From a virus (Duplodnaviria > Caudoviricetes), in the IMG/VR virus record IMGVR_UViG_3300032050_000002: a stretch of DNA of 64,000 nt. One strand, written 5' to 3'. The position numbers and the translations under genes are program-made. Under the pieces are notes generated by a model that ran no database searches, had not been told where the DNA came from, and saw only the letters and a list, made by a program, of their open reading frames with translations. How positions within the stretch are numbered: the stretch's first letter is position 1; the number at the start of each line of letters is the position of its first letter. Of the stretch, positions 4,443 through 58,764 are shown one piece after another.

Positions 4443-4857
4443 AATACAAAGATAAAACAAGAAAATATGAACTACAATAACATTATTATTGATTTCTTTA
4501 CTGGAATGAGAGGAATTCATGATTTATTTGAATCTATATATGAAGGATTATATGGTGGTGTTCAACGATATAAGGTAGAACCAAATGAAGGTATCTTTGA
4601 TAAAGATTTCTTAATAAAATTTATTAAGATAAATCAAGGTAATAATGATTTTGATTATGAACTTGGTAGAATTGGTTATAGATTTCTAACTTCAAATGAA
4701 GGGTTAAAAGAATTATCAAAATTCTACTTGAACGAGTTAAAAACATATAAACATGAATATGTATCAACTGAAGTTATTGAAAATTGTAAGAAATCGTTAA
4801 TTAATATAATAAACACATAATTTTAATTTTTTAAGAAGGGTGGTAAATTTTTATTGT

Positions 4858-4911
4858 ATATAACGTCTGATGATAAACAATCGTTTTAATGTTGTTTATC
4901 ATTTGTTATAT
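4858..4911 (+). mobile_element. attC-like site A
   Basis: ATATAAC-gtctg-ATGATAAACAA-loop-TTGTTTATCAT-tt-GTTATAT; 48 bp near-identical to site D. Confidence 0.75.
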
Positions 4912-4935
4912 GAATGTAAATTAAAATTTGAAAAT

Positions 4936-5205
4936 ATGAGTAATATAGGTAGAATAATAAAAAATGGCTATTGTAATGGTTTCTTTGGGCGAGATTATGA
5001 TTTTCATAATTCTGTAATCATTGCTGAGGGAGATGAATACATTGTTATTAGAAAAGAAAATGGTATTGTTGAATTTGGTAATCTTCAATCTTGGGACTGG
5101 AATAGAAATGATGATGGAACTTTATCATATGGGATTTCTAATTTACAATGTATGAGTAGAGAAAAGAAACAAGAACTAATTGATAGTTGGTGTGGAGAAT
5201 TTTAA
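4936..5205 (+). CDS. Cassette 1 ORF, hypothetical (frame also open from ATG 4870 inside attC A)
   Basis: Cassette ends GTTATATGAA (4905-4914) and TTCATATAAC (5211-5220) are exact reverse complements. Confidence 0.65.
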   Translation: MSNIGRIIKNGYCNGFFGRDYDFHNSVIIAEGDEYIVIRKENGIVEFGNLQSWDWNRNDDGTLSYGISNLQCMSREKKQELIDSWCGEF

Positions 5206-5213
5206 TTTATTTC

Positions 5214-5308
5214 ATATAACGTTTTGCGTATATGCGAGGTACGCCAAACAATAAACTTAAATATTTGTAAACCGCTTCGTGGCGTATCTTGCATATACGC
5301 TGTTAGGC
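5214..5308 (+). mobile_element. attC-like site B
   Basis: TAAC-gtttt-GCGTATATGCGAGGTACGCCA...TGGCGTATCTTGCATATACGC-t-GTTAGGC imperfect palindrome. Confidence 0.75.
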
Positions 5309-5323
5309 ACAGTTGTTTTAATT

Positions 5324-5533
5324 ATGACAAAATTCGATAACGGTTTTATTCTTTCAACCGATGAACTGAAAGAATTGCTTGAAAAAGCGTTTAGTAATGG
5401 TGCTTTATCTCACGCTAAATGGGATGGACAAAGAGATACTTGTTGGTCAAATGTTAATGAAGATATGAAAGAAGAAGTTTCAGTAATTCTTTCTGACCTT
5501 AACAGTAAGGTGGTCACTAACAATTGTGCCTAA
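5324..5533 (+). CDS. Cassette 2 ORF, hypothetical
   Basis: Stop TAA overlaps R'' (gccTAAc); ends GTTAGGCACAGTTG / CAATTGTGCCTAAC are 13/14 complementary. Confidence 0.65.
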   Translation: MTKFDNGFILSTDELKELLEKAFSNGALSHAKWDGQRDTCWSNVNEDMKEEVSVILSDLNSKVVTNNCA

Positions 5534-5668
5534 CTATTACAGATATATTTAGGTTTTCTGATATTTATATATAAAATAAAATTATGAGCAAAGAAATGAG
5601 AAAATACATAGACACTTTCAAACAGAGACTAACTGAATCAGAAAACTTGAATATATCTGATGTTAGTG
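5528..5668 (+). mobile_element. attC-like site C with TATTTAT motif, ATG and leader peptide inside its loop
   Basis: Arms CAGATATATTTAGGTTTTCTGAT (5540-5562) / ATCAGAAAACTTGAATATATCTG (5637-5659), flanked by CCTAAC and GTTAGTG. Confidence 0.75.
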
Positions 5669-5871
5669 ATAGTAATCAATTCAAAGTAGGGGATAAAGTT
5701 ATAAAAAACGAAGAAACTTGGGAACCAAATGATTTTGATAGTTGGGGAAGAGGAATTGGTGTGGGAATTATAGTTGAGCCTCCTTTTGAAATGGATGAAG
5801 GTGAAGTTGATGTAAGATGGCCTAATGGTAGAAGTTTTGAATTCACACACCAATTACGAAAGGTGAATTGA
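5584..5871 (+). CDS. Fusion ORF: attC-encoded leader (aa 1-26) + cassette 3 domain
   Basis: Codon 27 is the GTT recombination triplet (5662); cassette ends 5662-5682 / 5865-5885 are 20/21 complementary. Confidence 0.7.
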   Translation: MSKEMRKYIDTFKQRLTESENLNISDVSDSNQFKVGDKVIKNEETWEPNDFDSWGRGIGVGIIVEPPFEMDEGEVDVRWPNGRSFEFTHQLRKVN

Positions 5872-5878
5872 TTATTAT

Positions 5879-5932
5879 CACTAACGTCCGATGATAAACA
5901 ATCGTTTTAATGTTGTTTATCATTTGTTAGGT
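5879..5932 (+). mobile_element. attC-like site D
   Basis: CACTAAC-gtccg-ATGATAAACAA...TTGTTTATCAT-tt-GTTAGGT; copy of site A. Confidence 0.75.
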
Positions 5933-5990
5933 TTAGTTAAATTATTGTTTTACGAATGAAAAAAACAGATTATTACGAAATTTATATTTA

Positions 5991-6730: not shown

Positions 6731-6840
6731 TATTGTTCTTTGAAAGATTTATTGTGTTGTTCCCTTGAGAAAGGAAGTGCATTACCAGTAGAGGAATCAA
6801 GTTGTGCTCTACCAACACAGAGGACTTCTCACCCTCAAAT

Positions 6841-6967
6841 AGTCAGGTGACATTTGGTGTCATTAGTGTGGGAATGAATGTATACGACTGTCAAGTCAGT
6901 GACGTAACTGGCCAAATCCTACTACGGGTAGTATACGGCTAAACAGGTTCGAATCCTGTCCTGACTA
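6841..6967 (+). ncRNA. tRNA-like RNA 1 (127 nt), expanded anticodon domain
   Basis: AGTCAGG/CCTGACT acceptor, T-arm ACAGG-TTCGAAT-CCTGT, TTAGT/GCTAA stem around a large insert. Confidence 0.7.
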
Positions 6968-7182
6968 CAATGAGTAAGAGATACTCATTGGTCTTTGGTC
7001 AATAGATGGTTAAACAGGACTCGCTAAAATCTGGACAGCGAAAATGCCAGTTCGTAGGGCTCAAGGCGGCAATCACACCCTCTCCTACGTTGTGTGACTT
7101 TTTTAATAGGGGATGCCCTGTAGGTTTCATCAATAGGAAAAAACCGAAATAACTACTCACCGAATCTCAAGTGGGGAAATAT

Positions 7183-7308
7183 AGTCAGGTGGCGGAATTG
7201 GTAGACGCTAGAGCTGGAGTTAGGTCACACGCATTTGGGTTCGAGTCCCGTTAGTTGGGCCAGCTAGGAGAGCCGTAGACCGTGTGGGTTCAAATCCCAC
7301 CCTGACTA
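7183..7308 (+). ncRNA. tRNA-like RNA 2 (126 nt), Leu-type D arm, internal second T-loop hairpin
   Basis: AGTCAGG TG GCGGAATTGGTAGACGC ... GTGGG-TTCAAAT-CCCAC CCTGACT A. Confidence 0.7.
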
Positions 7309-7415
7309 CTGAATCAGTTTGTCCGTGGGAACGACTTGAAAGAGTCACTGTAATCAAAATCCAATCACTGTCTCACTGGTGTATTGGGCTAAATGTGAGG
7401 AAAAAACGGTCATAT

Positions 7416-7514
7416 AGTCAGGTGGTGTATATGGTAACACCCTTCATTGTAAGGATAAACAAGGTTGATTGTTTATCTGGAAGGACGAAGTCGGTTCGAA
7501 CCCGACCCTGATTA
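7416..7514 (+). ncRNA. tRNA-like RNA 3 (99 nt), hairpin inserted 3' of a possible anticodon (UGU or GUA, ambiguous)
   Basis: AGTCAGG/CCTGATT, D stem GTGT/ACAC, CCTTC/GAAGG stem, T-arm GTCGG-TTCGAAC-CCGAC. Confidence 0.7.
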
Positions 7515-7591
7515 CACTTGGTTTCGGTAGAGTTCCAGAAAGCATAGACTGAACAAAAAACAATCTACCTCGTTGACATAGAAGTGTCGTT

Positions 7592-7726
7592 AGTCAGATG
7601 GCGGAAACGGAAGACGCAACTGTGATGATTTTGCCGGAAGGTGTAACTCCTTTGTCTTAGGACATAAACAATAGCGGGGTTAATCAGTTCTCAATCATCG
7701 TGTGGGTTAGAATCCCACTCTGATTA
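7592..7726 (+). ncRNA. tRNA-like RNA 4 (135 nt)
   Basis: AGTCAGA/TCTGATT (covarying pair 7), GCG..GACGC D arm, GTGGG-TTAGAAT-CCCAC. Confidence 0.65.
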
Positions 7727-7795
7727 CTGAAAATAAAACTCTGGGGTCAGGGTTTTGTTTCGCCGAAAGGTGTTGTTTTCAACGGTTCGAGTCCG

Positions 7796-7908
7796 AGTCA
7801 GGTGGCGGAATGTTAGACGCTTAAGGGTTGGATGGATGTTGCAACTGAAAAACAATGAATATAACCTTGAAAAAATCCATCGTGTGAGTTCAAGTCTCAC
7901 CCTGACTA
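7796..7908 (+). ncRNA. tRNA-like RNA 5 (113 nt)
   Basis: AGTCAGG/CCTGACT, GCGGAATGTTAGACGC, GTGAG-TTCAAGT-CTCAC. Confidence 0.7.
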
Positions 7909-8033
7909 CAATATGATAACAACAATATTAGTATACATTGGGTTTATCCTTTGGTTTTGGGCGGGATATAATGTGGGAAAAAATAACCGAAGATAAATTT
8001 GGTAAATTAAAAATAATTTCGTATCTTTGTATT

Positions 8034-12366: not shown

Positions 12367-13098
12367 ATGAAAAAATTTATAATTACTGAAGAAGAAAAAA
12401 ATAACATTCTTAAAATGTATAATGTTAATTTATTAAATGAGGACATATTTAGTTCGTTTATTGGTGCATTGTCTAAATTCGCAAGAAAAGCCATCACTCA
12501 ATCTGAAGATGATTTAATAAGAGCGTTTAGAACAAGTGAAGTTGCGTTATCTAAAAATATTGATGATATTGTTAATTTATCAATAAAAAGCGGTAAAATT
12601 GATGATATACAAACTTTAGAAGCAAAATTAATACATGCTTTCGACCCAAGCGGAACCAATCCCCAAATGGCGCAAGAACAAACTAAAAAATTTCTTAATA
12701 GTTATGCTAAAAGTAAGGGTAATACTGGGTGGAAAGATATTAGGTCTAAGGCACAACCTAGTCAGTCAGGAAGTGCCGCTCAATCAAATACGGCCGGAGC
12801 TTCAACAAGTGCGGTACGTAATATGTTTTCAGGAAATAGGATTTCAAATCGGTCATTTGGTGCCGATACCGAATGGTCTAAATATATTGAGTGGGATAAA
12901 ATTTTAAACGCTAAAAACATGGACGATTATAATAAGTTAATTGCTAAAGCAATTAAAACTGGTGATTATAGTCGTATATCTTCAAAAGGATTTGAAAGAT
13001 TTGGAATTGTTAATTTTAGAGATTTTCTTAAAAACAATATTACTAAAGTAAATGAAGTTATCCCTGAAACTGGAAGATGGAGCGTTGTATTTAAATAA
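12367..13098 (+). CDS. I/L-x-E leader protein, hypothetical
   Basis: MKKFIITEEEKNNILKM is identical to the start of 36109..36399. Confidence 0.6.
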   Translation: MKKFIITEEEKNNILKMYNVNLLNEDIFSSFIGALSKFARKAITQSEDDLIRAFRTSEVALSKNIDDIVNLSIKSGKIDDIQTLEAKLIHAFDPSGTNPQMAQEQTKKFLNSYAKSKGNTGWKDIRSKAQPSQSGSAAQSNTAGASTSAVRNMFSGNRISNRSFGADTEWSKYIEWDKILNAKNMDDYNKLIAKAIKTGDYSRISSKGFERFGIVNFRDFLKNNITKVNEVIPETGRWSVVFK

Positions 13099-17670: not shown

Positions 17671-18711
17671 TCATTTTATTTTAATTCTTTTATCTTGAGA
17701 GTCGGAGTATATTTTTTCATTCAAACAGTAGTAACTACCTTTAATATCACCATTAATTTGATTTAAAATTAAGTCGACAGTTGATTTAAATTCAGGTCTA
17801 CCTTGGCCGTACATTTTATTATCAGAAATTAATATAATATCATCATAATCTTCCTCATTTTCATACGGTTTAATATTTAAAACCGATAAAGGATTTTGAA
17901 TATTCTTATCATTATTTTTAATTAGATAAGAGATTAATGAACCTTCTTTAACATCATTTAATAAGTAGTTAACATTCTGACCCTCTTCTTTTCTATCGTT
18001 AATTTCCTTCTCTATTTCAATTATTTTTTTGTAAAGTTGTCTAATTTTTTCTTGTTTTTCGTAAGGAATTACTTCCCTCTCAGGAAAGAAAAATGCGGAT
18101 GCAACTTCTTTAGGTCCACTCTCAGCTTCAGCTTTATAAGTCTCGTATTTCATTTTGGCTTCCCTTAATGAATTTTCAAGTTCTTTAATTCTTAACGAAT
18201 CAGAGTGACCCATAGTCATACAATTAGTCCAATTTCTATCTGTATCTGAACCGGCAATATCATAAGGATGTCTTGATATTACAACCATTAGATTAGATGC
18301 GTCAGATGTTAAAGATTTCCTTGATTCATCAGATACAAATTTTTTCATTAAAGCGTCAGATTTAAGTCTTGATAATGCTTTACCAATAGTTGTTACATTT
18401 TTTGAATCACCATACTTAGCGGTTCCTTTAACGTAATCCAATACTTTATATCCATTATCTTCTAAAAACTTTGTAACTTCTTTTTGAGTTTCTGATACGG
18501 GACCTTCTTGTGAAGATGATTGTAATGGAATGTAGATTCTATAATAGTTTCTATCGTGACCATACTTATCGCCAAGTGTTTTAAATATGTCAGAATACCT
18601 TTCTCTATTAAATTCTTTTGCGTATTTTCTAAATTGAGATGGTTTTAAGACCTCATTAACCATTTTAATGATAACTTTTTTTAATTCAGGTTCAGTTAAT
18701 CTTAATCTCAT
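17671..18711 (-). CDS. I/L-x-E leader protein, hypothetical
   Basis: MRLRLTEPEL; TATTTAT on minus strand at 18717-18723. Confidence 0.6.
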   Translation of the reverse strand: MRLRLTEPELKKVIIKMVNEVLKPSQFRKYAKEFNRERYSDIFKTLGDKYGHDRNYYRIYIPLQSSSQEGPVSETQKEVTKFLEDNGYKVLDYVKGTAKYGDSKNVTTIGKALSRLKSDALMKKFVSDESRKSLTSDASNLMVVISRHPYDIAGSDTDRNWTNCMTMGHSDSLRIKELENSLREAKMKYETYKAEAESGPKEVASAFFFPEREVIPYEKQEKIRQLYKKIIEIEKEINDRKEEGQNVNYLLNDVKEGSLISYLIKNNDKNIQNPLSVLNIKPYENEEDYDDIILISDNKMYGQGRPEFKSTVDLILNQINGDIKGSYYCLNEKIYSDSQDKRIKIK

Positions 18712-53196: not shown

Positions 53197-56100
53197 TTAA
53201 TCTATTTTAGAAAAAAGTGTTGTTAAATACTTTTTATTCTCATCATATATTGTTATTTGGTAGAAACCCGTATTCAAAAATCTTAAATCAACTTCATCTT
53301 CAGAATTTATATTTTTAGTTAAATAAACTTTACCTAATATATCTGAAACAACTAAATTAAATTTCTCACTTTCATTATGAAATATTCTTATTTGTAATAA
53401 ACCATTACCCGGATTCGGAAATACTATAAATTCAAAATCTTTATTATCTATTTCACCAAAACCAACTGTTTTTGATGTATTACAAACTTTAGTAACTCCA
53501 AAATAAGCCATTGGACTTGAACCACAAGTATTAACACCCATCACACTAAATGTACCACCCATAAAAGATGAGCTTGTTTTAGCCATAACACTATTTCCTG
53601 TTGTTGAACCAATAAATTGAGTTCCGTTAGAGTTATTCCAAATATAACTTGTAATTCTTGGAGATGTTGATGCAACTAATCTAATTGTATCAGGAAAACA
53701 AACCGATGAAGTTCCTGTAACAGTGGGTCTAACAGTCAATAAACCAACTTTCTTTTTACTTAATACACTACCACAAGCAAATTGTGTCGCTAATCTTATA
53801 CTATCACAAGAATTATTAATACAAGATGTGGATTCAAAATTACTTGGGAAAAATACGTCTATAGAGTTCGTTCCTTGACCTCTCACTATTTGAGCATTTC
53901 CTGGTACAGTCCAATTAAACGATAACGCTCCTGTTGTAGATACACTATACGTGTTAGTAAACCCATTATCAACACAATTAACACCACTTATACTAACACT
54001 TGGTAAACCCAAATCAACGGTTCTAATTCTTGTTATAGGATTTCCACATCCACCCGTAATTACAACTTGAATGTTTCCACCTGTAAAACCATTTTGGAAT
54101 GTTACATTAATTGAATTAGTTCCCTGACCACTAATTATTGTTGAGTTAGCAGGTACAGTCCACAAATAGTTAACTCCACTTATTGGACTAACACTAAACG
54201 TTGCAGGAGTGTTAGTTCCTACTAAACTACAAACACTTCTTACACCTGAAATTGCTGAAGCGGAAATTGTTGATGTTGTTGTTGATAGTGTTCTATTTGA
54301 AGATATACTTCCTCCACAACCATTGTTTAAGTTAACACTAATTGTTCCTGAACTAAATGAGTTAGATACTAATACATTTATTGAATTAGTTCCTTGACCC
54401 GATTGTATTGTCATATTAGTAGGAACAGTCCAAGTAAATGTTCCACTTTGATTTGTAACACTATAAGTAACTGATTGACCTAAGTACGGACACAAATCGC
54501 CAGGGCCTGTTATAGTTCCTATATTAGCGTAAAGATTATTATTAGATACAGTTCCATAAGTCATAGGTGATGAACCACATTTGTTAACTGACATCACACT
54601 AAATTGACCTGAAGTAAAGTTTGTACTAAATTTTACTTTAAGTGTGTCATTACTACTTGAACCTATTATACTAACACCATTAGGTACATTCCAAATATAC
54701 ATAAACGATGTAGGTACAGAATCGACTCTATAAGTGTAAATTGTATTACCATCAGCACAAACTGTTGTAGGTCCTAAGATAGACGTAGGTCTAACAACTA
54801 ATCTATCAATCGTAAATTGAGTTGTACTACTTCCACAAGAATTTGTTGCAGTAACTGAACCACCTGAACCACTTACCAACATTATTGACACTTTAAATTG
54901 TACAGTATCGTTACCTTGTCCACTATATATATTAACTCCATAAGGTACAACCCAATTATAAGTCATATTTGGTTGTGAATTTGTTACAATGTATGATTTA
55001 ATACTACCTGTAGGTTCACCACAGAAACTACCTGATACGATTGGTTTATTAGGTAATTTAGTAACCCAAATACTTCTATGATAAGTAATACCATTAGAAA
55101 CAACATCAACTTCAATACTATCTTGAACGAACCCTGAAGAAAAATTAACATTTATTGTTGGGTTACTTAATCCATTAGTTGATGTTATACCATTAGGTAA
55201 AATCCAAGTAATACTTTCAGGACTTGCGTTAGAATAATCAATGGTATATGAACCAGAACTAAGACCACATATTGAAGTGGGACCTTCTATTTGACCAACA
55301 TTAATAATTGCTGACGTACAACCCAAAGTCATTGGAGAAACTGATTGACAACCTTTAGAATCCGTAACAGTTAATGTGTAATTACCTGACGCGACGCCCG
55401 TTAAATTTTGTGTTGTTTGACCATTTGACCAACTGTATGTAAAAGGAGGAGTTCCACCAATAACACTACTACTTACAACACCATTATTTGAACCACAATT
55501 AGGGTAAGTTGTTATATCTAATGATATACTAATTTCTGATGGTTGAGAAATATTAATATATGTAATTTTTGTACAACCTTTATTATCTGTAACAGTAATT
55601 TGATAATTACCTGATGTTAAATTAGAAATACTACTTTGAGTATTTCCTGTATTCCACATATAAAGATAAGGTAGAGTTCCTCCTGACGCAGTAACCGAAG
55701 CGCTACCATTATTACCACCATAACAATTCACATTTGTCGTTGTTACAATTGTTGTTAGTTGAGTTGGTTGAGTTATTGTAACCGTTCTTGTCGTCTGACA
55801 CCCCTTTGAATCCGTAACTGTTACACTATAAGTGTTTGCCACAAGTGAGAAAATATCTTCTGTTGTTTGACCATTACTCCATAAGTAAGTATAAGGTGAT
55901 GTTCCTCCTGATGGAGTTAAGTTTATACTACCGCCAGGTTGTCCAAAACAACTTGGGTTAAAACTAGTTGATGTTGAGGCAAGTAACGTAGGTTGAGTAA
56001 TTGTGATTGATGTAGTTGATGTACAACCATAAAAATCTGTGACTGTAACTGAATAATCTCCTGATGTTAGGTTTGATATGTCCTCAGTAGTTCCACCATT

Positions 56101-58764
56101 AGACCAATTAAAATTAAAAGGTGAATTACCTAACGGAGTTAAATCTATACTACCATTATTACCACCATTACAACTAACATTAACACTTGTTGTTGATAAT
56201 ATAGAAGGAAATCTAACAGTCCAAGAAGTTAATACATCATAAGCATTGTTAGAACATCCAATACCTGTAGAACAATCACCTCTGCGACCTCTTATTTGAA
56301 CTACACTTCCGGCGGTTAGTGATGTTGTAGATATTAAAGTTCCTGGAGTATAACTTTGCCAAGATGTACCATTAATAGTGTATTGAAATATATCTGAACA
56401 GTTTATACCATTACTACCCGAATTGAATGTCGCTGATACATCACTACCAACACAAACATTGTTTGAGTTGGGTGTTTTAGTATTTAAAGTTGGATTAATT
56501 GGGTCAGGAATTACATTAACGGTATGAACGGGTGAGGTTCCTACACACCCTTTAGAATCTGTAACTACTACTCTATAATCTCTTGTTGATGTAGGTGTTG
56601 CGTTTATTGTTGTGGTTGTAACACTGTTTTGCCAAGTAGAGTTAAAAAATTGCCATTGATAAAAATAAGTTGGAAATCCCGATGTTACAGTTGAAGTTAT
56701 ATTATTAGTTCCCGAACCTCCAGCACATATCTGACTTGTGTAAGTGTTTAAGGTGACAGATGGGTTTGTTGCGGTAGTTAACGACACAGTATTTGAATTA
56801 ACAGATTGATTACAAGTATTTGTAATACTAACATAATAATTTCCTAATGTTGATGTAGAATAAGTCGATGAGTTAGCCCCTGATATTGGATTGTTATTTA
56901 AAAACCATTGATAAGTAAAAGGTTGTCTAACTCCTGATGCGGTAACTGAAAAAGTTACTTGTGATGTACAAGTTGTTTCATTAATAGGTTGTGTAGTTAT
57001 TGTTGGCGGTGAAGAAGTGTAATTAACTGATAATTGAAATGTTCCTCTTGCATTACTATAACCTGTAACCATCACATAATATTCTGTTAAATCTGTTGTT
57101 GCAAATGTAACTTCAGAACGAGTACTACAAAAATCATCACTATAGGTTAAACAAGTAAGTGCTCCACAAGTTCCTGTATATACAAATAATTTAGTATCAA
57201 AAGAAGTTCCTGTACATAAACTTAATGTTACATTTTGTCCGTTACCAATAACCTTATACCAAACCCCTGGTGCAGTCCAAGTCTCAGAGCCACCGTTATA
57301 ACAACTTGGTGAATCACCTGTTTGAGTCGCATTTTGAGTACTACCATTGAAAGTTGTATTACAAGAGGTGATAATCGCTCCTGAACATTCATCATTTGAA
57401 GGTGGTGGAATTGTACACTGAACACTTCTTGTTCTTATTGTTACTGATTCTCCACATGAGTTATTTGTATGAGTATAAAATCTCACAGTTTCGTTTGAAC
57501 TTGGTGTATAAACAACTGGTGTTGTCCCGTAAACTAAAACTGTTGTTCCTCCATTATTACTAATAGTTATAAAATCTGTTAACACCGAACTTCTAAATGT
57601 ATATTGAATTCCTCCTGTTAAACTAACCACTGAGTATTCACCCGCGTAACCACCTGTTGTAATATTTTCTTGAGTTCCTGAACAAGTTGGTGTGTATGTT
57701 GATGTCGGCCATTGACCATTTGAAGCGGTTAGACATCCAGGACCTGAAGTTGTAAATGTCCATACCGAACATCCTATAGCATTACCTGCAGAATTCTTTG
57801 GGATTATTTGCCAATAATATTGTGTGTTATAACTTAATGTTGATGGAGTATATGTTGTTCCAACTTGGTTAACAACAAAAGGTGGAGACGAATTTGACCC
57901 AAAATAAACATCATAACTTGTTGCACCAGATACCGCTCCCCAAGTTAAAGTAGGTCCTATAAATACACCCGTTTGATTATTTGTTGGCGATGTTAAAGTT
58001 GCACAAATAGGAACCGCTTGATAAGTTAATATAACTCTACCCGCAGCACCTCCACCACCAGCTCTACCTGTTGTATTATTTTTATACGCACCGCCACCTC
58101 CACCACCTGGAGATACACCTGACGAACCTGCTCCACCTGAAGAGTGACCACTACCACCATTACCTCCACCAGCAGGTGCGGTAGCTCCCGCAGTTCCCGT
58201 TGCATCAACACCGGCTAAAGTAGTTCCTGCTGATGAGCCCCCTCCTCCCGAAGTTACCCCACCAACTCTACCACTACCACCCCTACTTGATGTTCCTATA
58301 CACCCTGTTGTAGAACCAACTCCAGCAGTAGTTCCAACTGCACTTTGTCCGCCCTTAGCGACAACACCGTTAGTTGATACTGTAGGGGCAATGTTTGACA
58401 ATTTACTAACCCAAGTATCATTACCGTTAGATGCGTTACCTTGAACTCCAGCTCTTGCTGCTCCAACACTATAATAAATTGTTTGACCAGGTGTTACAGA
58501 TATTGTTGTTGTTGAACGAGAACCTCCCGCTCCGCCCGCAAATCCCCCTGTTCCTGATGTTGATTGTCCGGCACCAGCTCCACCACCACCCCAAGCATCA
58601 ATTTTAATTGAGTATACGTTAGCAGGGACAGTCCAAGTTCCTGATGATGTTCCAACATTTGCTCCTGAGGCGGGCATTGTTTGAGAAAAATTTTTAAGAT
58701 TACATAAAATAAAAATAGATAAGAATAGGGTCTTAAAAAATGATGATAAAGTAAGAGGTTTCAT
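53197..58764 (-). CDS. 1855-aa adhesin-like T9SS cargo (Gly-rich, FnIII, SprB repeats, PKD-like, T9SS CTD)
   Basis: Signal peptide; CNGGNNGSIDL...WSNG.TTEDI..L..G.YSVTVTD..GC repeats; C-terminal VFPNP...DILGK...L.TGFY. Confidence 0.85.
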   Translation of the reverse strand: MKPLTLSSFFKTLFLSIFILCNLKNFSQTMPASGANVGTSSGTWTVPANVYSIKIDAWGGGGAGAGQSTSGTGGFAGGAGGSRSTTTISVTPGQTIYYSVGAARAGVQGNASNGNDTWVSKLSNIAPTVSTNGVVAKGGQSAVGTTAGVGSTTGCIGTSSRGGSGRVGGVTSGGGGSSAGTTLAGVDATGTAGATAPAGGGNGGSGHSSGGAGSSGVSPGGGGGGAYKNNTTGRAGGGGAAGRVILTYQAVPICATLTSPTNNQTGVFIGPTLTWGAVSGATSYDVYFGSNSSPPFVVNQVGTTYTPSTLSYNTQYYWQIIPKNSAGNAIGCSVWTFTTSGPGCLTASNGQWPTSTYTPTCSGTQENITTGGYAGEYSVVSLTGGIQYTFRSSVLTDFITISNNGGTTVLVYGTTPVVYTPSSNETVRFYTHTNNSCGESVTIRTRSVQCTIPPPSNDECSGAIITSCNTTFNGSTQNATQTGDSPSCYNGGSETWTAPGVWYKVIGNGQNVTLSLCTGTSFDTKLFVYTGTCGALTCLTYSDDFCSTRSEVTFATTDLTEYYVMVTGYSNARGTFQLSVNYTSSPPTITTQPINETTCTSQVTFSVTASGVRQPFTYQWFLNNNPISGANSSTYSTSTLGNYYVSITNTCNQSVNSNTVSLTTATNPSVTLNTYTSQICAGGSGTNNITSTVTSGFPTYFYQWQFFNSTWQNSVTTTTINATPTSTRDYRVVVTDSKGCVGTSPVHTVNVIPDPINPTLNTKTPNSNNVCVGSDVSATFNSGSNGINCSDIFQYTINGTSWQSYTPGTLISTTSLTAGSVVQIRGRRGDCSTGIGCSNNAYDVLTSWTVRFPSILSTTSVNVSCNGGNNGSIDLTPLGNSPFNFNWSNGGTTEDISNLTSGDYSVTVTDFYGCTSTTSITITQPTLLASTSTSFNPSCFGQPGGSINLTPSGGTSPYTYLWSNGQTTEDIFSLVANTYSVTVTDSKGCQTTRTVTITQPTQLTTIVTTTNVNCYGGNNGSASVTASGGTLPYLYMWNTGNTQSSISNLTSGNYQITVTDNKGCTKITYINISQPSEISISLDITTYPNCGSNNGVVSSSVIGGTPPFTYSWSNGQTTQNLTGVASGNYTLTVTDSKGCQSVSPMTLGCTSAIINVGQIEGPTSICGLSSGSYTIDYSNASPESITWILPNGITSTNGLSNPTINVNFSSGFVQDSIEVDVVSNGITYHRSIWVTKLPNKPIVSGSFCGEPTGSIKSYIVTNSQPNMTYNWVVPYGVNIYSGQGNDTVQFKVSIMLVSGSGGSVTATNSCGSSTTQFTIDRLVVRPTSILGPTTVCADGNTIYTYRVDSVPTSFMYIWNVPNGVSIIGSSSNDTLKVKFSTNFTSGQFSVMSVNKCGSSPMTYGTVSNNNLYANIGTITGPGDLCPYLGQSVTYSVTNQSGTFTWTVPTNMTIQSGQGTNSINVLVSNSFSSGTISVNLNNGCGGSISSNRTLSTTTSTISASAISGVRSVCSLVGTNTPATFSVSPISGVNYLWTVPANSTIISGQGTNSINVTFQNGFTGGNIQVVITGGCGNPITRIRTVDLGLPSVSISGVNCVDNGFTNTYSVSTTGALSFNWTVPGNAQIVRGQGTNSIDVFFPSNFESTSCINNSCDSIRLATQFACGSVLSKKKVGLLTVRPTVTGTSSVCFPDTIRLVASTSPRITSYIWNNSNGTQFIGSTTGNSVMAKTSSSFMGGTFSVMGVNTCGSSPMAYFGVTKVCNTSKTVGFGEIDNKDFEFIVFPNPGNGLLQIRIFHNESEKFNLVVSDILGKVYLTKNINSEDEVDLRFLNTGFYQITIYDENKKYLTTLFSKID

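Follow-up and report, generated by a model that had tools for sequence, protein, structure and literature searches.

A putative attC-like hairpin site that carries the gene start of the cassette behind it in a phage of Bacteroidota

We analyzed a 64,000-nt stretch of phage DNA (hereafter, the window) and found a hairpin, site C (5531-5665, + strand), which is probably an attC-like site of an integron-like cassette system in phages of Bacteroidota, its loop being the built-in gene start of its own cassette. The loop would supply a gene-start motif, an ATG, and 18 codons, and translation would then cross the right arm and the GTTA core into a cargo without a start of its own.

Site C runs from a TAAC (5531-5534) to a GTTA (5662-5665) and is flanked by GCCTAAC (5528-5534) and GTTAGTG (5662-5668). 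A spacer (5535-5539) is followed by the left arm (5540-5562), the loop (5563-5636), the right arm (5637-5659), and a second spacer (5660-5661), all on the + strand. The arms are 23 nt each and 91% complementary, with the 74-nt loop between them. In folding calculations, the + strand as single-stranded DNA reached −17.3 kcal/mol (z = −3.2), which none of 200 shuffles equaled, and it folded better than the other strand. The loop contains the gene-start, promoter-like motif ATATTTAT (5561..5568, + strand), placed 15 nt ahead of an ATG at 5584, and 18 codons. The arms, a TATTTAT (5562-5568), the ATG at 5584, and a GTT at codon 27 had all been located at these positions in the first-pass annotation, and our analysis confirmed each of them.

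The ATG opens ORF3 (5584-5871, + strand; 95 aa), which starts with MSKEMRKYIDTFKQRLTES. Its first 27 codons (5584..5664, + strand) encode the leader MSKEMRKYIDTFKQRLTESENLNISDV, referred to here as type 1. The right arm codes for SENLNISD, in which ENLNISD corresponds to codons 20-26, and codon 27 is the GTT (5662-5664) of the GTTA core, read as Val. The cargo that follows (5665..5871, + strand) is a start-less SH3-like/MIB-HERC2-like beta barrel with a match to phrog_7871, confined to ORF3 residues 31-82. An AlphaFold2 model of ORF3 comprised a helix (residues 3-20), a disordered segment across the GTT junction (residues 21-31), and a confidently predicted SH3-like barrel, for which the MIB/HERC2 domain was the best, though weak, structural match. 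Past the GTT, the first in-frame ATG is codon 70, and the sole earlier alternative start is a GTG at codon ~60, in agreement with the earlier remark that cassette 3 has no ATG near its 5′ end. The R″ end of cassette 3 (5864..5885, + strand) is complementary to the cassette start (5662-5683).

The same leader is joined to many unrelated proteins. The right arm with GTTA was found in at least 120 metagenome stretches, 56 IMG/VR contigs (4-318 kb), and 7 MAG contigs, with up to five copies of the leader module per locus; because an exact match to the right arm was the retrieval criterion, conservation of that arm among these loci is circular. Protein searches returned three groups of matches: proteins of 62-76 aa that consist of the cargo domain alone, proteins in which a different N-terminus precedes the cargo, and proteins sharing the leader. 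In approximately 90 proteins, the leader was 65-100% identical and divergence was complete past DV or DVSDS. There are two main leader types, namely type 1, that of the window, and type 2, MKDLKHIKRFNESEENLNISDV. The leader frame stayed open for at least 40 codons in 162 of 173 distinct downstream ORFs (median 63), while the two other frames closed almost immediately; the in-frame rule between leader and cargo covers 154 instances, and blastp placed the 162 cargoes in 130 mutually unrelated families. The residue following the leader Val was only S, R, I, M, or N, indicating that its codon begins with the A of GTTA. When unrelated cargoes were compared in pairs, 65% shared only GTTA or GTTAG, with a minor mode at 12 nt.

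The noncoding side of the hairpin and the far end of the cargo are also maintained. The left arm was kept in 94 of 108 non-identical copies (87%), 4-5 nt past TAAC. The reverse complement of the cargo's first 12 nt (its own R′) was present at its stop in 68 of 109 cases, compared with 9 of 316 controls, and in 17 of these 68 cargoes the stop is the TAA of TAAC, as in ORF2 of the window. The first-pass annotation had anticipated homologues with a common leader, unrelated C-termini directly past DV/GTT, and a complementary TAAC end on each cargo. Dozens of C-termini behind a leader 65-100% identical, together with the R′ complements at the stops, bear this out.

A leader conserved under purifying selection could also mark an ordinary multigene family whose members retain an N-terminal signal, the upstream inverted repeat being incidental, and other genes of the phage do share N-terminal motifs without hairpins. 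We consider this explanation highly improbable, since it does not fit 130 mutually unrelated cargo families, a noncoding left arm that 87% of copies retain, in register with TAAC, or the leaderless sites of the same build all around.

To which ORF the hairpin belongs is indicated by what is retained when units change context. The segment 5640-5887, consisting of the site C right arm, cargo 3, and TAACGT, is 99.6% identical to part of another locus, L140. In L140, however, the leader loop is of type 2 and the next hairpin is unrelated, and the homology of cassette 3 stops at TAACGT. Among 24 non-redundant pairs in which the same ORF unit (≥80% identity) occurred in different contexts, 19 kept only the upstream hairpin, none kept only the downstream hairpin, and five kept neither. 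At the nucleotide level, homology was limited by TAAC(G) or its spacer at both ends. Stem mismatches on the ORF-sense strand comprised 668 G.T and 51 A.C, indicating selection for folding of the sense strand; such G.T wobbles would be equally compatible with folded RNA and with single-stranded DNA. The linkage and the strand asymmetry together indicate that the hairpin normally travels with its own downstream ORF, with borders at TAAC. Site C is therefore better interpreted as the 5′ portion of cassette 3 (~5535-5884) than as the attC of cassette 2. A cassette is thus a hairpin plus the ORF downstream, with TAAC on either side, the mirror image of the classical ORF-plus-attC unit. The classical orientation, with the attC downstream of its ORF, was considered first and dropped on the linkage evidence.

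The first-pass annotation had taken site C for the 3′ attC of cassette 2, with a G|TT crossover and a resident promoter and leader that tag whatever inserts behind it. Several observations agree with that arrangement: the variable part starts directly past GTTA, the loop ahead of the 99.6% identical cargo is of type 1 here and of type 2 in L140, the upstream core was also swapped in five of the 24 pairs, and the geometry resembles that of classical attC sites and of ORF-11 (PMC8876359). Nevertheless, we regard it as unlikely, because the upstream hairpin was retained in 19 pairs and the downstream hairpin in none, the window and L140 have unrelated hairpins downstream of this cargo, and the stem mismatches (668 G.T versus 51 A.C) indicate selection for sense-strand folding. 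The part of the claim that makes site C a tag for any insert was accordingly not retained. Hairpin cores at least 95% identical were found between unrelated ORFs in 333 pairs, showing that over evolutionary time junctions have often formed at the GTTA side, too. Such exchange does occur, but more rarely than the TAAC-bordered movement. As a caveat on the folding strand, the sense strand has extra unpaired bases on its 5′ arm, which is the opposite of the classical recombining attC strand. Neither a clean presence/absence variant of a cassette, nor an excised circle, nor transcript ends were seen in the metagenome and metatranscriptome contigs, which break at the repeats and have short sides at the joints.

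We propose that cassettes with an upstream hairpin move as folded sense-strand DNA that would be cut near TAA|C by a Xer-like recombinase, and that the rarer GTTA-side exchanges would re-pair leaders and cargoes. The gene-start motif may act as a promoter, and the helical leader may have a function of its own. If the sense strand corresponds to the classical “bottom” strand, TAA|C cleavage with a downstream recombinase would restore the classical intI-attI-array geometry, the ORFs alone being inverted. Such an inversion of the ORFs would account for a hairpin that is able to carry a gene start.

Site C is one of four sites in a short array. A scan of the 64 kb for TAAC...GTTA hairpins yielded four sites, all on the + strand and all within 4861-5929, compared with zero to two in 20 shuffles. 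Site A (4861..4908, 48 nt) has a core near-identical to that of site D and precedes ORF1 (4936..5205, + strand; 89 aa), which has its own ATG, matches phrog_11714, and lies in a unit with complementary ends (4905-5220). Site B (5217..5305, + strand; 89 nt), whose R″ is complementary to the R′ of site A, precedes ORF2 (5324..5533, + strand; 69 aa), with its own ATG 22 nt past the GTT and a stop formed by the TAA of the site C TAAC. Site D (5882-5929, + strand) is followed by 36 nt from the start of a final cassette that has been lost (5882..5965 in all). In sites A-D, 5 unpaired nt follow TAAC (4 for A and D in the scan alignment) and 1-2 nt precede GTTA. The complementary unit ends in the window are 4905-4925/5200-5220, 5302-5317/5519-5534, and 5655-5683/5864-5892; no partner was found upstream for the R″ of site A or downstream for the R′ of site D. 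Site D with the 36 nt (5882-5965) matches the final site of L140 (9073-9156) at 98% identity, and the homology to L140 stops there, indicating that the window array is truncated at this point. A contig from an RNA library that carries an ORF1 homologue stops at TAACGT.

Two further observations concern the A/D-type core. This 48-nt core (window 4818-4965 and 5854-5927) had a summed contig depth 20-60 times that of its unique flanks in three lake metagenomes, indicating that the core is common to many co-occurring genomes. In loci L031 and L052, A/D-family cores stand before a 98% identical cargo and differ by several compensatory stem changes with an identical loop (ATCGTTTTAATGT), a covariation in favor of the stem.

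Beyond the window, hairpin sites and a recombinase occur together. The hairpin sites of 204 loci split 807 to 30 between the two strands, and the longest array comprised 22. In 26 loci, a Xer-like tyrosine recombinase of 266 aa was present; it was co-oriented with the leader in 34 of 34 pairs and lay 0.17-5.5 kb downstream in 32 of them. The window itself contains no copy. This recombinase scored 155 bits against TIGR02249 (cut-off 265) and 189 bits against XerA (cut-off 220), and in the region that spans 78 residues in VchIntIA (2A3V), including the IntI insert, it has 30, i.e., ~48 fewer. Its nearest cultured relatives, at 36-40% identity, are the recombinases of Cellulophaga phage Ingeline and Polaribacter phage Freya; no such array was found at the Ingeline recombinase. 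At L140 9400-9470, the array ends with a TAAC and then a short GTTAG/CTAAC element just ahead of the recombinase start, which is a candidate attI-like insertion site. Homing-type elements were also encountered in one locus, L001: one cassette (4838-5585) is formed by a 228-aa NUMOD4 (homing-endonuclease-type) gene, its called start lying inside the preceding 127-nt hairpin, and the neighboring UvrD helicase is interrupted by a LAGLIDADG-containing intein.

The hairpins might instead be regulatory RNA or DNA elements, of the type of a PeSL-like terminator with a promoter, that are shuffled by homologous recombination without any site-specific system. In T4-type phages, PeSLs are intergenic stem-loops with a promoter that flank variable small ORFs in hyperplastic regions and do drive modular shuffling (PMC2839356, PMC4122927), much as seen here; the promoter-like motifs in the loops, a wobble pattern compatible with mRNA-sense folding, and the lack of a recombinase in the window would also be in keeping with such elements. 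PeSLs, however, are conserved in sequence, are thought to use homologous recombination, and have no TAAC/GTTA cores, complementary ends, recombinase, or coding leader. The phage hairpins did not show this conservation: unrelated cores share one architecture (TAAC, a 5-nt spacer, a stem, a 1-2-nt spacer, and GTTA), and the breakpoints coincide with TAACG, a 5-nt stretch whose flanks are otherwise unrelated, a pattern for which homologous recombination cannot account. Each unit has complementary ends, and a tyrosine recombinase is tightly linked and co-oriented. We therefore judge the regulatory explanation to be improbable and favor the attC-like reading of site C.

The position of the gene-start motif suggests how the loop might act. 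Of the 53 copies of ATATTTAT in the window, 37, including that of site C, are within 35 nt upstream of an ATG-initiated ORF of at least 50 aa; for other 8-mers the proportion was mostly 6-21%, and for a shifted, overlapping motif 44%. In type-2 loops, TTTAATATATAC is followed by 19 nt and then the ATG. In type-2 phages, TTTAATATATAC precedes gene starts at 18 of its 44 other occurrences and its reverse complement at 3 of 182. These counts support a putative promoter-like role. Metatranscriptome contigs include an ORF1 homologue and the type-1 leader, although DNA carry-over is possible and contigs cannot reveal transcript starts. Across the window, ATATTTAT(A) lies 4-28 nt ahead of the ATG starts of many genes, at 37 places (e.g., 31796, 32141, and 36862, and 25489 and 28555 on the − strand) and is a candidate phage-specific promoter; it is distinct from the host-type TTTGTATCTTTGTATT box found before 3765, 6054, and others.

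The peptide encoded by the loop appears to be constrained. In the loop codons, where the DNA is free of pairing, changes were mostly synonymous, e.g., at F, Q, L, and T of type 1 and F-N-E of type 2. The pN/pS ratio was 0.27 for type 1, 0.46 for the type-2 core, and 1.2 for two variable codons. These modest values suggest that the leader peptide is under some purifying constraint.

What the leader does can be stated with less confidence. That it is an initiation adaptor with a somewhat constrained peptide is, in our view, an evenly balanced proposition. A packaging tag like the capsid targeting sequence (CTS) of T4 is a tentative possibility, and we would place a function of some other kind at the same tentative level. 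A virion-targeting role, with possible cleavage after E18, had been suggested in the first-pass annotation. A T4-type CTS is a propeptide at the N-terminus that directs packaging and that the prohead protease removes at (L/I)-x-E; besides a similar motif, the features of the phage leader that bear on this comparison are its peptide-level constraint and its predicted helix with a flexible linker. In T4 internal proteins, the CTS is a short N-terminal leader across diverse small phage proteins, as here (PMC9026906). The hydrophobic-x-Glu motif of the phage leaders (LTE here, FNE in type 2) recalls the T4 capsid-targeting propeptides as a resemblance only, which makes the leader a candidate functional analogue; unlike the T4 CTS, the phage leader has no sequence homology to it, and T4 leaders are not part of a recombination site. 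A more specific proposal, which we hold to be rather doubtful, is that the start-less, phase-0 GTT-A cargoes can be re-paired with any hairpin leader, in a manner similar to exon shuffling, and that the NLNISDV leaders are capsid-targeting or ejection tags. If that tag reading were true, the array would be a shufflable library of proteins co-injected with the DNA, e.g., counter-defence effectors.

A related N-terminal motif is found in the window outside the array. Approximately 19 otherwise unrelated ORFs start with MK..I(I/R)(I/L)TE(S/E).. and have amphipathic N-termini, many of them behind ATATTTAT. They are located at 12367, 13109, 31817, 32162, 33835, 36109, 36895, 40490, 41332, 43610, and 60511 on the + strand, and at 18711, 20371, 20738, 23231, 25489, 25822, 28165, and 28555 on the − strand. 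The leader sequence RLTESENL resembles the IRLTESDL of these ORFs. Ten of them, searched against Pfam and PHROGs, gave no informative match for the motif. The first-pass annotation had counted an L-T-E motif in about 30 ORFs; it was right about the kind of motif and too generous about its number, since a literal LTE occurs within the first 40 residues of only six.

The arrangement extends beyond the NLNISDV leaders. Among other long hairpins (≥100 nt), 102 of 226 have a loop ATG that reads through GTTA for at least 40 codons, compared with 9 of 223 short hairpins. The frame reads GTT as Val in 79 of the 102 start-bearing long hairpins, and their leaders belong to other families (KKLHISDV, PKLGISVV, and hydrophobic FAYVLL types). 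Such a shared phase-0 convention would keep exchanges between leaders and cargoes in frame.

In many respects, the phage system resembles integrons. Its sites are imperfect hairpins with TAAC/GTTA cores and a structure conserved over sequence, like attC, and judged by architecture only they have the R″/L″/L′/R′ boxes and AAC/GTT cores of attC-type sites. As in integrons, each unit has one ORF and complementary ends, and the arrays lie on one strand beside a tyrosine recombinase. CALINs, which consist of at least two attC within a few kb with no integrase nearby, have been described in phages (Qi et al. 2023, PMC9892861), and the window, with four sites at 4861-5929 in 64 kb free of a recombinase, has by architecture only the composition of a CALIN. 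In contrast to integrons, the phage hairpin moves with the downstream ORF, the ORF-sense strand folds, the complementarity of the unit ends spans 10-22 nt, and approximately half of the long hairpins contain a gene start. The linked recombinase is Xer-like, 266 aa long, downstream, and co-oriented, and it is devoid of the specific insert of IntI. The integron unit of an ORF with its own attC, a G|TT crossover, and bottom-strand folding was likewise not what we found, in view of the 19-to-0 linkage, the TAAC(G) breakpoints, and the 668 G.T to 51 A.C mismatches.

The closest precedent for a start inside a recombination site is ORF-11/ORF-18 in attI1 of class 1 integrons, whose frame runs over the crossover and which helps cassettes without initiation signals (PMC8876359). 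The phage module likewise has its start within the site and a frame that crosses the core. ORF-11, however, is normally ended by the TAG of GTTAG and works by translational coupling, whereas the phage frame reads GTT-A.. as Val-X and yields a true fusion. Moreover, the phage module lies in attC-like sites, is present many times per genome, and has a conserved peptide. Our literature search found no publication on the leader module or the inverted cassette.

The host of the phage is a member of Bacteroidota. TAnnTTTG-type promoter boxes stand directly ahead of several window genes, and a phage-encoded 1855-aa protein (53197-58764, − strand) combines PKD-like and SprB repeats with a T9SS C-terminal sorting domain. 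The few genome bins with the module are mostly Bacteroidetes, Bacteroidia, or Bacteroidales MAGs. The window is AT-rich (GC 29%) and phage-like; blastn against cultured phages gave no match. A GC-richer part (6740-7910) contains five tRNA-like units with canonical T-arms and long inserts. ARAGORN called no tRNA in the window, and Rfam gave one tRNA-like match (7183-7308, 36 bits), unrelated to the hairpin sites. On one near-identical contig (L138, 1272-1763), a 163-aa ORF comes directly after the HAD phosphatase gene, in place of this tRNA-like array.

In textbook integrons, cassettes lack a promoter and have the recombination site after the gene. In the phage system, the site comes first and gives the gene putative expression signals and an N-terminus under a shared reading-phase rule, across at least 130 protein families. 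Phages bearing the module are found in lakes, sludge, sediment, and the sea. The module represents a natural, modular design of tag plus cargo, and the small phage proteins that bear the same leader make up a large catalogue. The system also provides a concrete, testable mechanism by which the accessory genes of phages could be shuffled and yet remain expressible.
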